Source of the DNA: a virus
Taxonomy: Duplodnaviria > Heunggongvirae > Uroviricota > Caudoviricetes
Length of the DNA: 25,829 bases
Reading direction: 5' to 3' (one strand)
Virus record (IMG/VR): IMGVR_UViG_3300005357_000001
The notes below the pieces were generated by a model, which had not been told where the DNA came from, searched no databases, and was given only the letters and a program-made list of their open reading frames with translations. Shown piece after piece: positions 14,012 through 25,829 of this stretch. How positions within the stretch are numbered: the first letter of the stretch is position 1; each line of letters opens with the position of its first letter. Both the position numbers and the translations under genes were made by a program.

Positions 14012-14076
14012 TTAGGCGACGCCTAACGCAATTGTCAATAGGCTGTGCCTAATGCAGTAAGGGTAGGGATTGCCTA
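14012..14076. promoter_or_regulatory. Divergent racR/ydaS promoter region with three palindromic operator-like sites TAGGC-N3-(G/A)CCTA
   Basis: TAGGCGACGCCTA (14013-14025), TAGGCTGTGCCTA (14039-14051), TAGGGATTGCCTA (14064-14076), read directly. Confidence 0.55.
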
Positions 14077-14105: not shown

Positions 14106-14582
14106 ATGCTTAGTGGTAAAGACTTAGGCCGAGCGATAGAGCAGGCCATTAACAAAAAAATCGCATCGGGATCCGTCAAATCAAAGGCGGAGGTCGCACG
14201 CCACTTTAAAGTCCAACCACCATCAATTTATGACTGGATTAAGAAAGGCTCTATAAGTAAAGATAAACTTCCAGAATTATGGCGTTTCTTTTCTGATGTT
14301 GTTGGTCCAGAGCATTGGGGGCTTAACGAATACCCCATACCAACCCCCACCAATTCAGATACAAAAAGTGAACTTTTAGATATAAACAACCTTTATCAAG
14401 CAGCCTCTGATGAAATAAGAGCGATTGTAGCTTTCCTGTTATCTGGAAATGCTACAGAACCAGATTGGGTTGACCACGATGTTCGCGCCTACATAGCAGC
14501 GATGGAAATGAAAGTGGGTAAGTATCTGAAAGCTCTTGAATCTGAACGGAAAAGCCAGAACATCACAAAAACTGGAACTTAA
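14106..14582 (+). CDS. racR: Prophage repressor RacR (CI-like), 158 aa
   Basis: Track ORF; N-terminal HTH; divergent from the cro-like ydaS. Confidence 0.8.
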   Translation: MLSGKDLGRAIEQAINKKIASGSVKSKAEVARHFKVQPPSIYDWIKKGSISKDKLPELWRFFSDVVGPEHWGLNEYPIPTPTNSDTKSELLDINNLYQAASDEIRAIVAFLLSGNATEPDWVDHDVRAYIAAMEMKVGKYLKALESERKSQNITKTGT

Positions 14583-14679
14583 ACTTATATGGTCTGACGG
14601 AAAACTCCTGGATTCCGTTATTTAACCCCCCCATCACTTTCTGCTGTCGCCATCACCTATTAGGTTACGCTCAAAACAT

Positions 14680-14717
14680 TAGGCATAGCCTATTGACAAT
14701 CAATTAGGCATTACCTA
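14680..14717. promoter_or_regulatory. Second operator-like cluster downstream of racR (OL-like), two TAGGC-N3-(G/A)CCTA sites
   Basis: TAGGCATAGCCTA (14680-14692) and TAGGCATTACCTA (14705-14717); the ATTGTCAAT element also recurs inverted (14031-14039 versus 14692-14700). Confidence 0.5.
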
Positions 14718-20894: not shown

Positions 20895-21110
20895 ATGGCA
20901 CAAGTAATCTTTAATGAAGAGTGGATGGTTGAATACGGCCTGATGCTTCGCACTGGTCTGGGGGCCAGACAAATTGAAGCATACCGCCAGAACTGTTGGG
21001 TGGAGGGCTTCCACTTCAAACGAGTATCTCCTTTAGGTAAGCCAGACAGCAAACGAGGGATTATCTGGTACAACTATCCAAAGATAAATCAGTTTATCAA
21101 AGACTCATGA
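20895..21110 (+). CDS. xisR: Excisionase-like protein, 71 aa
   Basis: GAGGTGA SD before ATG 20895 (the track start at 20871 is TTG); stop abuts the intR start. Confidence 0.75.
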
Positions 21111-21111
21111 T

Positions 21112-22347
21112 ATGTCTAAATTACCAACAGGTGTCGAGATTAGAGGTAGATACATTCGCATCTGGTTCATGTTTCGAGGAAAACGATGTCGGGAAACATT
21201 AAAAGGCTGGGAGATTACAAACAGTAATATTAAAAAGGCCGGAAATTTAAGAGCGCTGATAGTTCATGAAATAAACTCCGGTGAATTTGAGTATTTAAGA
21301 CGTTTTCCCCAGTCCAGCACTGGGGCAAAAATGGTGACAACGAGAGTCATAAAAACGTTCGGAGAGCTTTGTGATATCTGGACAAAAATTAAAGAGACAG
21401 AGTTAACAACAAACACAATGAAGAAAACGAAATCACAATTAAAAACACTTAGAATAATAATTTGTGAAAGTACCCCGATATCACATATTCGTTATAGCGA
21501 TATCTTAAACTACCGGAATGAACTGCTGCATGGAGAAACGCTTTACCTGGATAATCCAAGATCCAACAAAAAAGGAAGAACCGTGCGCACAGTTGATAAC
21601 TATATCGCCCTGCTCTGTTCGCTGTTGCGTTTTGCGTATCAGTCGGGATTTATATCAACCAAACCATTTGAAGGAGTAAAAAAATTACAGCGAAACAGAA
21701 TAAAGCCTGATCCGTTATCTAAAACAGAATTCAATGCATTAATGGAAAGTGAAAAAGGACAGAGCCAGAACTTGTGGAAATTTGCCGTTTACTCAGGACT
21801 TCGTCACGGGGAACTGGCAGCTCTGGCGTGGGAGGATGTGGATCTCGAAAAGGGAATAGTGAATGTCAGAAGAAACCTGACGATACTTGATATGTTCGGT
21901 CCCCCAAAAACAAATGCCGGGATCCGAACAGTAACACTACTGCAGCCTGCTCTTGAAGCACTGAAGGAGCAATACAAACTGACCGGGCATCATCGCAAAA
22001 GCGAAATCACCTTTTATCATCGGGAGTACGGCAGAACCGAAAAGCAAAAACTGCATTTTGTTTTCATGCCCAGGGTGTGTAACGGAAAACAAAAACCTTA
22101 TTACTCGGTAAGCAGTTTGGGGGCAAGGTGGAATGCAGCAGTAAAACGTGCTGGTATTCGCCGCCGTAATCCGTACCATACGCGGCATACTTTTGCCTGC
22201 TGGCTGTTGACGGCAGGAGCGAACCCGGCATTTATAGCCAGCCAAATGGGGCATGAAACTGCGCAGATGGTGTATGAAATTTACGGTATGTGGATTGATG
22301 ACATGAACGACGAACAGATAGCCATGTTGAATGCGCGGTTATCGTAG
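21112..22347 (+). CDS. intR: Tyrosine integrase (lambda Int family), 411 aa
   Basis: C-terminal catalytic region with R...HxxR...Y pattern (..HTRHTFACWLL...; ..MVYEIYGMW..); terminal gene of the prophage. Confidence 0.9.
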   Translation: MSKLPTGVEIRGRYIRIWFMFRGKRCRETLKGWEITNSNIKKAGNLRALIVHEINSGEFEYLRRFPQSSTGAKMVTTRVIKTFGELCDIWTKIKETELTTNTMKKTKSQLKTLRIIICESTPISHIRYSDILNYRNELLHGETLYLDNPRSNKKGRTVRTVDNYIALLCSLLRFAYQSGFISTKPFEGVKKLQRNRIKPDPLSKTEFNALMESEKGQSQNLWKFAVYSGLRHGELAALAWEDVDLEKGIVNVRRNLTILDMFGPPKTNAGIRTVTLLQPALEALKEQYKLTGHHRKSEITFYHREYGRTEKQKLHFVFMPRVCNGKQKPYYSVSSLGARWNAAVKRAGIRRRNPYHTRHTFACWLLTAGANPAFIASQMGHETAQMVYEIYGMWIDDMNDEQIAMLNARLS

Positions 22348-22355
22348 TTGCAAAG

Positions 22356-22602
22356 TTTGCCCCCAATTTGCCCCATTTAGTACCAGAGAACTGAAATAAT
22401 GCAAGAAAATCAACAAATTACAAAGAAAGAACAATACAACCTGAACAAGTAAGGGCAAAAATCACAACTCTCTGACTCATAAGTATTTTACTTATTTTTC
22501 AATGTGTTAAATATCATCAGCGACAACAATAAGCTACGATAATCCACTCTTTTTTTGCCCCTTTTTTGCCCCTTTTGCAGCGTTTTGCCCCATTTTTGCC
22601 AC
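22356..22602 (+). repeat. Five exact direct copies of TTTGCCCC (plus two partial) in two clusters flanking the ttcA-like start; candidate integrase arm-type binding sites
   Basis: Copies at 22356-22364, 22367-22374, 22554-22561, 22565-22572, 22584-22591; partial at 22573-22580 and 22595-22602. Confidence 0.5.
22399..22452 (+). pseudogene. ttcA: 17-codon ORF MQENQQITKKEQYNLNK-stop matching the N-terminus of tRNA-thiolation protein TtcA as I recall it; the ttcA body is absent
   Basis: Read directly; no long ORF follows in any plus frame. Confidence 0.5.
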
Positions 22603-23000
22603 CGAAAAAAATTCCAAAACGTCTCAATCAAAGTCAAACCAACCGCAGCACGTTCTTGCATACGACGTGACTGCGGTTTTTCAACTATTCAGATACATCA
22701 CTCCCATCACATTCATTCCTCCGCATCAAAGGCATATAGGCTATATCACCTTGATATTTTTCTTCTTCAGATAAAAACTGTTATCTATGTATACTTTTAA
22801 ACCCAATCCGTGTAGAGTCTCTGCATAAGATAGTTTGCAGTTGCCACTTCAGCTTGCGCCATAAACCGCCTGATTTTTGCCGCCACCTGTTAGCATTCCT
22901 GTATACCTGAAACGACAATGTTTATCTACGAACTTTAAGAACACCCAGGATAAAAATTGTCAACTATATCATATATAACACATTACTAATTCGAGGCTAT

Positions 23001-23064
23001 ATGAACAGCATACTGATAATCACTTCGCTCCTTATCATATTCAGCATTTTTAGTCATGCTCTAA
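23001..23064 (+). other. 5' end of a small hydrophobic ORF (MNSILIITSLLIIFSIFSHAL...) cut by IS5 copy 2 after codon 21
   Basis: GAGG SD 4 nt before ATG 23001; the frame runs into the IS5 end; the continuation would lie beyond the IS5, in the N-masked region. Confidence 0.35.
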
Positions 23065-24259
<1,195 letters not shown>

Positions 24260-24669
24260 NNNNNNNNNNNNNNNNNNNNNNNNNNNNNNNNNNNNNNNNN
24301 NNNNNNNNNNNNNNNNNNNNNNNNNNNNNNNNNNNNNNNNNNNNNNNNNNNNNNNNNNNNNNNNNNNNNNNNNNNNNNNNNNNNNNNNNNNNNNNNNNNN
24401 NNNNNNNNNNNNNNNNNNNNNNNNNNNNNNNNNNNNNNNNNNNNNNNNNNNNNNNNNNNNNNNNNNNNNNNNNNNNNNNNNNNNNNNNNNNNNNNNNNNN
24501 NNNNNNNNNNNNNNNNNNNNNNNNNNNNNNNNNNNNNNNNNNNNNNNNNNNNNNNNNNNNNNNNNNNNNNNNNNNNNNNNNNNNNNNNNNNNNNNNNNNN
24601 NNNNNNNNNNNNNNNNNNNNNNNNNNNNNNNNNNNNNNNNNNNNNNNNNNNNNNNNNNNNNNNNNNNNN
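24260..24669. other. Run of 410 N: assembly gap or masked sequence, beginning exactly at the IS5 end
   Basis: Read directly; content and true length unknowable from the window. Confidence 0.95.
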
Positions 24670-24772: not shown

Positions 24773-25829
24773 ATGATTACGCACAACTTCAATACCCTGG
24801 ACTTACTCACCAGTCCTGTCTGGATCGTTTCGCCCTTTGAGGAACAGTTAATTTATGCCAATAGCGCGGCGAAACTGTTGATGCAAGACCTCACGTTTAG
24901 TCAGCTACGAACCGGACCCTATTCCGTCTCCTCACAAAAAGAAACTGCCGAAATACCTCTCCGATCTGCAAAACCAACACGATATTATCGAAATCCTCAC
25001 TGTTCAGCGTAAAGAAGAGGAAACAGCATTGAGCTGTCGGCTTGTTTTGCGAAAGCTGACAGAAACAGAACCGGTGATTATTTTCGAAGGTATCGAAGCG
25101 CCGGCAACGCTGGGTTTAAAAGCCAGTCGCTCGGCAAATTATCAGCGCAAAAAACAAGGTTTTTATGCGCGCTTTTTTCTGACTAACTCTGCACCAATGT
25201 TGTTGATTGACCCGTCACGAGATGGACAAATCGTCGATGCTAACCTCGCCGCGCTCAATTTCTATGGTTATAACCATGAAACGATGTGCCAGAAACATAC
25301 CTGGGAAATAAATATGCTCGGGCGTCGCGTCATGCCTATCATGCATGAAATCTCGCATTTACCCGGTGGTCATAAACCTTTGAATTTTGTTCATAAACTG
25401 GCGGATGGTTCGACTCGTCATGTGCAGACCTATGCCGGACCGATTGAAATTTATGGCGACAAGCTCATGTTATGTATTGTGCATGATATTACTGAGCAAA
25501 AACGGCTGGAGGAGCAGCTGGAACATGCTGCTCACCATGACGCGATGACCGGATTACTGAATCGGCGACAGTTTTATCACATTACGGAACCAGGCCAAAT
25601 GCAGCATCTCGCCATCGCTCAGGATTACAGCTTGTTGCTCATCGACACCGATCGTTTTAAACACATTAACGATCTCTATGGGCATTCTAAAGGTGATGAG
25701 GTGTTATGCGCCCTCGCCCGCACCCTCGAAAGTTGCGCTCGCAAAGGCGATTTGGTGTTTCGTTGGGGAGGCGAAGAGTTTGTCTTATTGCTACCAAGAA
25801 CCCCACTGGATACCGCGCTTTCGCTGGCT
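24773..25829 (+). pseudogene. dgcM: PAS-GGDEF diguanylate cyclase (dgcM/ydaM-like), 5' part, with an apparent +1-nt frameshift near 24936-24944; runs off the window end
   Basis: Frame A (ATG 24773 or 24713) stops at 25010-25012; a second frame is open from 24882 to the window end and encodes ...RWGGEEFVLLLP (GGEEF motif). Confidence 0.7.

Follow-up and report, generated by a model that had tools for sequence, protein, structure and literature searches.

The junction that follows intR in this stretch of DNA (25,829 nucleotides; hereafter the window) is the exact attP of Rac, and the Rac in question is that of E. coli K-12, DH10B lineage, with an extra canonical IS5 in ynaM. The attP of Rac as such is known biology. 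Here it is seen at full length, whereas normally it is split between the two ends of the prophage, and the limits of the site can be set at about 22350-22604. Viewing the junction as attP also lets us propose concrete, testable candidates for the arm sites of IntR (consensus TTTGCCCCWTTT), which we did not find described in the literature. We would caution that the scaffold, taken at face value, suggests that ttcA, dbpA, and zntB were lost and that the prophage has an odd end. The sequence supports neither.

Rac fills the window, in the reverse of its usual orientation in K-12. Its genes within the window include ynaE (90-356), pinR, tfaR, stfR, and recE, and a diverged IS5 lies in lomR (5553-6748). 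When we aligned the window to the finished genome of DH10B, positions 1-22448 were 100% identical to Rac, through the end of the att core beside ttcA. Positions 22406-24259 matched the other side of the prophage (the uspF-side core, the 5' part of ynaM, and IS5) with three mismatches, all of which lie left of the core. In a comparison with 5,426 complete E. coli genomes, 22406-23064 was 99.5% identical to the ynaM region of K-12, the part of Rac that adjoins uspF at the other end of the prophage. In finished DH10B, Rac is integrated normally (uspF-core-ynaM'-IS5-'ynaM-ynaE...intR-core-ttcA), with ordinary attL and attR. The genes beyond it run intR-ttcA-dbpA-ynaL-zntB-ynaN-dgcM, and this annotation agrees with the order ttcA, dbpA, zntB that a preliminary description of this DNA had given for the interval between intR and dgcM.

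We assign this Rac to the DH10B lineage because, among complete genomes, the ynaM::IS5 junction is found at 100% identity only in the DH10B family: 17 complete genomes have it, all of them DH10B-type or other laboratory strains, including DH10B, NEB10-beta, EPI300, and GB2005. The junction was absent from the viral contigs that we scanned for it. An attP combined with ynaM::IS5 is a compact fingerprint of DH10B-family host DNA in assemblies.

The window consists of two contigs, and the first of these (1-24259) is one complete, circularly permuted Rac::IS5 unit, without differences from DH10B except for three variant bases in the att site. Its span of 24,259 bp is the sum of the published size of excised Rac (23,060 bp), IS5 (1,195 bp), and a duplicated CTAA (4 bp). 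The IS5 at the end of the contig (23065-24259, minus strand, 1,195 bp, with the transposase ORF at 23211-24227) is the canonical element of the DH10B-specific ynaM::IS5 insertion; DH10B has IS5 at about 16 places. Intact YnaM has 37 amino acids. IS5 cuts the gene after 21 codons, and this 5' fragment (23001-23064, plus strand) ends in ...GCTCTAA, with CTAA at 23061-23064 as one copy of the target duplication. The second copy of CTAA is at positions 1-4 of the window, at the head of the 3' fragment of ynaM (1-54, plus strand), which reads LIKLGIGISNNPDKTDV and then stops. These are the first bases after the same IS5, as position 1 aligns to the base of DH10B directly after the element. Because the window begins on the far side of the insertion with which the contig ends, contig 1 is a circular permutation of the whole element. 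(The preliminary description had overlooked that the IS5 insertion at the end of contig 1 also borders position 1.)

The place of exchange within attP can be read from single bases. The attL and attR of DH10B share an imperfect homology of 43 bp (22406-22448), which is where our two alignments to DH10B overlap; 40 of the 43 positions are identical, and the mismatches are at 22414, 22421, and 22422. Prophage Tracer also gives 43 bp for the att site of rac. The last 26 bp of this homology (22423-22448; AAGAAAGAACAATACAACCTGAACAA) form an identical core that is common to attL and attR. To the left of the core, the window has the diagnostic bases of the intR side (C22414, C22421, and A22422), and from 22449 rightwards it has the sequence of the ynaM side, so the exchange occurred within the 26-bp core. 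The claim that this junction is attP-like, and not an ordinary attL or attR, is borne out base for base.

The window, attL and attR of DH10B, and a natural unoccupied attB all share the same 26-bp core. (The attB is from the locus L017, whose uspF-ttcA-zntB region is 100% identical to many Rac-free wild strains.) The attP, the attL and attR of DH10B, and the empty attB form a consistent four-way set, as conservative exchange within the core predicts. In the GenBank entry for phage Rac-SA53 (KU052037.1), a 26-mer recombination site is annotated at each end of the prophage: one of the 26-mers is identical to the core and the other differs from it at three positions. A simple and weak search of 22395-22475 for inverted core-type sites (6-9 bp, up to one mismatch, and a spacer of 4-9) found none, and such sites are often very imperfect. 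None of the 5,426 complete E. coli genomes has a K-12-type attP at 99% identity or above, and nowhere in them was the full 717-bp query more than 97.9% identical.

The genes for excision and integration lie just before the site. xisR (also known as ydaQ; 20895-21110, plus strand) is annotated as such in DH10B, and its product matches Pfam DUF1233, a family of putative excisionases (E = 6.2e-21). The role of XisR as the excisionase of Rac has been described (PMC4632033). intR (21112-22347, plus strand) is 100% identical to DH10B and encodes a tyrosine integrase with an N-terminal arm-binding domain (Pfam Arm-DNA-bind_2 at residues 5-69, E = 3.9e-26, and Phage_integrase at residues 205-391, E = 6.6e-23). 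The core is 75 bp from the end of intR, and overlapping it is a phage-borne 5' end of ttcA (22399-22452, plus strand) with 17 codons and then TAA. The preliminary description had likened this short ORF to the N terminus of TtcA; its translation, MQENQQITKKEQYNLNK, is exactly residues 1-17 of TtcA from DH10B. The integration of Rac replaces the N terminus of TtcA (PMC4632033), and this phage-borne 5' end supplies the new one.

Direct repeats are present on both sides of the core, as had been noticed (two at 22356-22374 and three at 22554-22591). The repeat TTTGCCCC starts at 22356, 22367, 22554, 22565, and 22584, always on the plus strand, which makes five copies in 236 bp, and a degenerate copy, TTTGCCAC, is at 22595. 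Relative to the core, the repeats are at -67, -56, and +106 to +147, and neighboring repeats are mostly 11 bp apart. Across the whole window, we observed 6 copies of TTTGCCCC versus 0.97 expected. In Markov simulations of the whole window (n = 3000), no simulated sequence had three or more copies within 250 bp, as against five in the actual sequence. Nor did any simulation based on the local composition (n = 20000) have three or more copies in 765 nt.

The int-proximal arm (22356-22374, plus strand) has two copies, 11 bp apart, that begin 67 and 56 bp before the core and are candidate arm-type sites for IntR. The int-distal arm (22449-22604, plus strand) has three copies plus TTTGCCAC, and its identity to the ynaM-side end of Rac is 99.5-100% in K-12 and DH10B. 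The preliminary description had allowed that the segment after intR might turn out to be host DNA that is contiguous with ttcA, or that the repeats might be lacking from the other end of the prophage. In our alignments, the segment is the opposite end of Rac, and TTTGCCCC is present at that end in both DH10B and K-12, as well as in natural attPs. Host DNA to the right of the core was thereby ruled out, as the segment is the ynaM-side end of Rac. IntR may bind the TTTGCCCC repeats. We searched the literature for IntR arm sites and for the TTTGCCCC motif and found nothing relevant, including no footprint or gel shift of IntR on the repeats.

Between attP and ynaM is more Rac DNA (22605-23000, plus strand), which is identical to DH10B and has only short ORFs and no supported gene. 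A 57-amino-acid ORF in the distal arm had exact protein matches only in ordinary uspF-side contexts. Exact matching of proteins gave no hit for the ORF that fuses YnaM' with IS5, for an ORF across attP, or for the 99-amino-acid fragment of DgcM. The preliminary description had called the 600 bp or so on this side AT-rich, with no convincing ORF, and ending at the second copy of IS5. The low GC content was confirmed (0.345-0.41 across 22300-23099), and the region does end at IS5, but it is the other arm of Rac instead of ORF-free host DNA, and its last part is the 21 codons of ynaM.

Related elements show how much of this layout is conserved. We scanned genome, viral, and metagenome contigs for a 70-nt attP sequence and found a remnant in Shigella flexneri, 6 contigs from IMG/VR, and 6 metagenome contigs. 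We then aligned 14 attP loci: the window and 13 natural loci (from strain Jnd12, Shigella flexneri, IMG/VR contigs, and metagenome contigs). The natural loci were picked by an exact match to the 70-nt junction pattern, and we judged conservation outside of those 70 nt. The 14 loci are conserved from the stop codon of intR through TTTGCCCCATTTTTGCCA (around 22601), and past that point each group of loci has flanks of its own. Twelve of the 14 loci have the left pair of repeats unaltered, while the other two (L009 and L015) have one substitution in each copy. The right triplet is also kept in 12 of the 14, and in the other two a 31-bp deletion removed two copies. Among the natural Rac-like elements from the 70-nt scan, none had K-12-type sequence across both arms.

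Overall, a lambda-type attP is well supported, because IntR has an arm-binding domain. A match to the IHF consensus (AATCAACAAATTA; 22408-22420, plus strand) lies just left of the core; it is one of only two matches in the window, which is no more than chance. IHF has a binding peak on this consensus in attL, near the start of ttcA (PMC8407004). In gel shifts, XisR shifts a fragment that contains attR (PMC4632033). Putting these together, the int-proximal arm of attP would be short (about 75 bp, two sites) and the distal arm long (about 155 bp, three or four sites); the IHF site would adjoin the core, and XisR would act on the distal arm. The attP of Rac thus appears to work like that of lambda.

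The window ends with a second contig (24670-25829, plus strand), which carries the start of dgcM together with the 103 bp that precede its ATG (24773). It matches DH10B at every base but for a single insertion, an additional A at 24942-24944. Three unrelated public assemblies, wild-type and free of Rac, share this insertion (we matched these via their truncated DgcM of 79 amino acids), and every other indel in those three assemblies changes GAAC to GAAAC or GTTC to GTTTC. The recurrence of the extra A in unrelated assemblies whose other indels all hit these sites is better explained by a technical error than by a genuine frameshift. We also considered the frameshift as a marker of lineage and dropped it because the extra A is found in unrelated strains. 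Errors at GAAC/GTTC sites affect 0 of 217 sites in contig 1 versus 1 of 9 in contig 2 (P = 0.04, Fisher exact test), and the case for uneven coverage of the two contigs rests on this single error.

The sole link between the Rac unit and dgcM is a run of 410 Ns (24260-24669). The preliminary description had listed a deletion associated with IS5 among its explanations, and our results do not support this: the element is the ordinary ynaM::IS5 of DH10B with its CTAA duplication, and only the run of Ns joins it to dgcM. The end of IS5 is not directly at a deletion endpoint, as 410 Ns separate it from the dgcM fragment. The start of contig 2 is unique and arbitrary: it does not coincide with the edge of a repeat, and it is unlike the CTAA-type site that flanks this IS5. 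With a chimeric query (the IS5 end, the DH10B sequence that fills the gap, and dgcM), we found no IS5 end beside dgcM in the 5,426 complete genomes, and all of the finished genomes of the DH10B family that we examined keep ttcA, dbpA, and zntB. A deletion of these three genes is not supported by the sequence, and their apparent loss comes only from the gap in the scaffold.

The orientation of dgcM relative to intR is the chromosomal one, so the scaffold link is probably genuine proximity in integrated copies of Rac. A link from contig 1 to dgcM through read pairs from integrated copies predicts a gap of about 2,190 bp, which is what remains of 4,001 bp of DH10B sequence once the 1,811 bp that contig 1 covers beyond the core is subtracted. 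The gap is given as 410 instead, which counts against a read-pair link from integrated copies.

How did an intact attP come to be in this record? Of the explanations that had been offered, a recircularized or tandem junction, or an artifact of scaffolding, fits best. Our preferred explanation, which we believe has about an even chance of being correct, is that real attP molecules were sequenced, either a circle or a simple head-to-tail junction, with no deletion demonstrated. The excision of K-12 Rac into a circle by IntR and XisR is well documented (PMC4632033, PMC11014345, PMC8682789). IntR and XisR would carry out a conservative exchange between attL (intR/ttcA) and attR (uspF/ynaM), within the 26-bp core, to give attP. 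In the sequenced DNA, the integrated junction would have been outnumbered by the looped-out circle or by a head-to-tail junction of Rac. The assembler would then have taken the path through attP (from the base after IS5 through Rac and intR to attP, the 5' part of ynaM, and IS5) and stopped where the circle closes on the multi-copy IS5. The dgcM fragment would have been joined at the scaffold level only, probably by read pairs from integrated copies.

The form of contig 1 is what this explanation draws on. The contig is unbroken through the att repeat and through the 1.2-kb, multi-copy IS5, and it ends at the very point at which the sequence would return to its first base. These features, along with the lack of errors in contig 1, the arbitrary start and extra A of contig 2, and the chromosomal orientation of dgcM, fit best if the Rac unit was over-represented and the chromosome thinly covered; we infer that this was so and that the Rac molecule was a circle or a dimer. 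A preparation that was enriched for circular molecules and that contained host DNA of the DH10B type is one plausible setting, but this is speculation. Published observations also count against this explanation. First, attP reads are rare in ordinary cultures of K-12 (PMC8682789), so attP could become the consensus only if Rac had been unusually induced, if circular DNA had been enriched, or if a dimer was present. Second, the excised Rac circle has been published as non-replicating, so a lasting excess of the circle is not expected.

The rarity of attP reads would fit if attP was never present in the DNA. Rac might be integrated normally, and the assembler might have crossed from attL to attR via their repeat (26 bp exact, or 43 bp at 93% identity), with a reciprocal attB-like contig elsewhere. 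We consider this rather unlikely. The output of such a misjoin would be identical base for base, since the switch lies in the shared core. Also, the finished DH10B-family genomes are all ordinary, the K-12-type attP is found in 0 of 5,426 complete genomes, and the record, a draft with a gap, probably contains one sequencing error or more. However, an exact repeat of 26 bp is shorter than almost any read, and it would collapse only with a very small k-mer or with very permissive overlaps. Furthermore, a misjoin at the core leaves three features of the assembly unexplained: contig 1 runs through the multi-copy IS5 to its far end, contig 2 has an arbitrary, unique start, and 4 kb of unique sequence (ttcA-dbpA-zntB) is absent from the scaffold.

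If we read the window as written, it begins just after IS5 and ends with IS5, the gap, and dgcM, which could instead reflect a stable rearrangement in a derivative of DH10B. Then the chromosome would really contain the attP and an IS5 on either side of the unit. One form would be a trimmed dimer of Rac, with a deletion adjacent to IS5 that took the second copy along with ttcA, dbpA, and part of zntB. In the other form, the Rac::IS5 circle would have re-inserted via IS5 near zntB/dgcM, by cointegration or by IS5-IS5 recombination, which amounts to an IS-mediated relocation of the whole prophage with attP intact. A dimer of Rac would be stable in DH10B, since the strain is recA1 and its IS elements are active. 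A gap of an estimated 410 bp is about what an IS5 end within the 5' part of zntB would give, and strain Jnd12 is a precedent for an intact Rac-type attP inside the chromosome. In Jnd12, a Rac-like genome lies between duplicated modules of another prophage (a DUF977 protein, the replication-organizer-position gene, and YdaT), the layout to be expected if a circle had integrated by homologous recombination. Nevertheless, a stable rearrangement seems improbable to us. It requires two rare events, or else an insertion that happened to land no more than 4 kb from where Rac was originally attached. Neither DH10B nor any of the 5,426 complete genomes has IS5 near dgcM, and no finished K-12-type genome has such a structure. 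The start of contig 2 is not a CTAA-type site or a repeat boundary, and about 410 bp of unique DNA would have gone unassembled for no reason.

Finally, it is extremely unlikely that two different ttcA-integrating prophages lie in tandem, with the right arm from the second phage: some natural contigs do have the intR-attP module and then unrelated phage DNA past about 22600, but here both arms are 100% identical to DH10B Rac including ynaM::IS5 (which was why we rejected a second, different prophage on the right-hand side), and the window starts with the rest of the same ynaM.

The closest known system is the excised Rac circle of K-12, which has the same integrase, excisionase, and att core, and the arms in the window are identical to those of Rac from K-12 and DH10B. 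The published unit of 23,060 bp is equal to ours once the IS5 of DH10B is added. The differences are that the element in the window carries the additional IS5 of the DH10B lineage in ynaM, and that the published attP was a minority species (detected by PCR or in a few split reads), while here it is the assembled consensus. An intact attP within a chromosome is also found at the middle junctions of tandem polylysogens and where circles integrate by recombination, as in Jnd12. Unlike a tandem polylysogen, the window shows a single Rac unit, with no second copy or second IS5 flank in view.

As in the attP of lambda (POP', with Int, Xis, and IHF), the integrase of Rac is a tyrosine recombinase with a separate arm-binding domain, the core is short, and there are direct repeats in both arms (two versus at least three) that are about one helical turn apart. 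The total length is about 250 bp in both. Further likely parallels in Rac are a candidate IHF site by the core and an excisionase that would act on the long int-distal arm. The P' and P arms of lambda would then be paralleled by the short and long arms of Rac, respectively. On the other hand, the consensus TTTGCCCCWTTT is unrelated to that of lambda, and the arm-binding domain of IntR belongs to Pfam Arm-DNA-bind_2. The 26-bp identical core of Rac is part of a coding region, and we recognized no inverted core-type sites around it. In carrying a replacement for the end of its target gene, the attP of Rac resembles that of e14, which integrates in icd: in both cases the gene is left intact and the protein is slightly altered. 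The difference is that e14 replaces the 3' end of its target, while Rac, with its 17 codons of ttcA, replaces the 5' end, including the start codon and presumably the promoter.

The two IS5 copies of the window are mutually inverted and share only about 91.5% identity overall. The copy in lomR (5553-6748) is assigned to the ISKpn26 family in the DH10B annotation, while the copy in ynaM (23065-24259) is the canonical K-12 IS5. Because the copies have diverged this far, the assembly passes through the lomR copy, yet the ynaM copy bounds the first contig. The scaffold consists of this contig (24,259 bp), 410 N, and a second piece of 1,160 bp. Position 1 of the window falls exactly at the IS5 target duplication, its end (25829) falls within dgcM, and the total is an odd length; these features together suggest that the window is the whole two-contig scaffold and not a slice from a longer record. 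In that case, the source assembly would be highly fragmented in its chromosomal portion.

In the second contig, dgcM (start codon at 24773) contains an extra A at 24941-24945, where GAAC has become GAAAC, which cuts DgcM to 79 amino acids. Three unrelated assemblies that lack Rac (Logan SRR33768594, SRR33769413, and SRR33768799) share this insertion, and all of their remaining indels are also at GAAC or GTTC. Among the top matches listed, none of the complete genomes, including MG1655, has the extra A. The insertion is probably a systematic sequencing error and not a real frameshift.

Within the prophage, racR (14106-14582) is bracketed by a 35-nt inverted repeat (14031-14065 and 14666-14700), whose arms are 83% complementary. 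These arms may be a pair of operators for a repressor. One of them lies in the racR-ydaS intergenic region.

A 57-amino-acid ORF on the minus strand (22488-22661) directly overlies the distal-arm copies of TTTGCCCC, the direct repeat that is found on both arms of attP and is a candidate arm-type site for IntR. RefSeq annotates this ORF as a hypothetical protein (WP_001157925.1 in E. coli Jnd12), and the gene index lists it in 1,398 blocks and records no Pfam match for it. Probably, the ORF is a spurious prediction over attP arm DNA.

The 3' end of intR with an intact attP also occurs as short remnants that correspond to 21706-22570 of the window and have unrelated surroundings. These remnants are in the chromosome of Shigella flexneri SFBU1023 (locus L004, 6684-7547), in a 184-kb plasmid (NC_007675.1, 90901-91165), and in two other loci from the database comparison (L005 and L007). 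In the S. flexneri and L005 copies, a 31-bp deletion removes two of the three distal repeats.

In E. coli Jnd12, a composite prophage (NZ_CP095820.1, 2652277-2712000; loci L001 and L030) encloses an entire Rac-like phage genome whose internal attP is intact. This genome is flanked by duplicated modules (a DUF977 protein, a gene in the position of the replication organizer, and YdaT), with another integrase located at the far end. The arrangement looks like a phage circle that was inserted into a resident prophage via homologous recombination.
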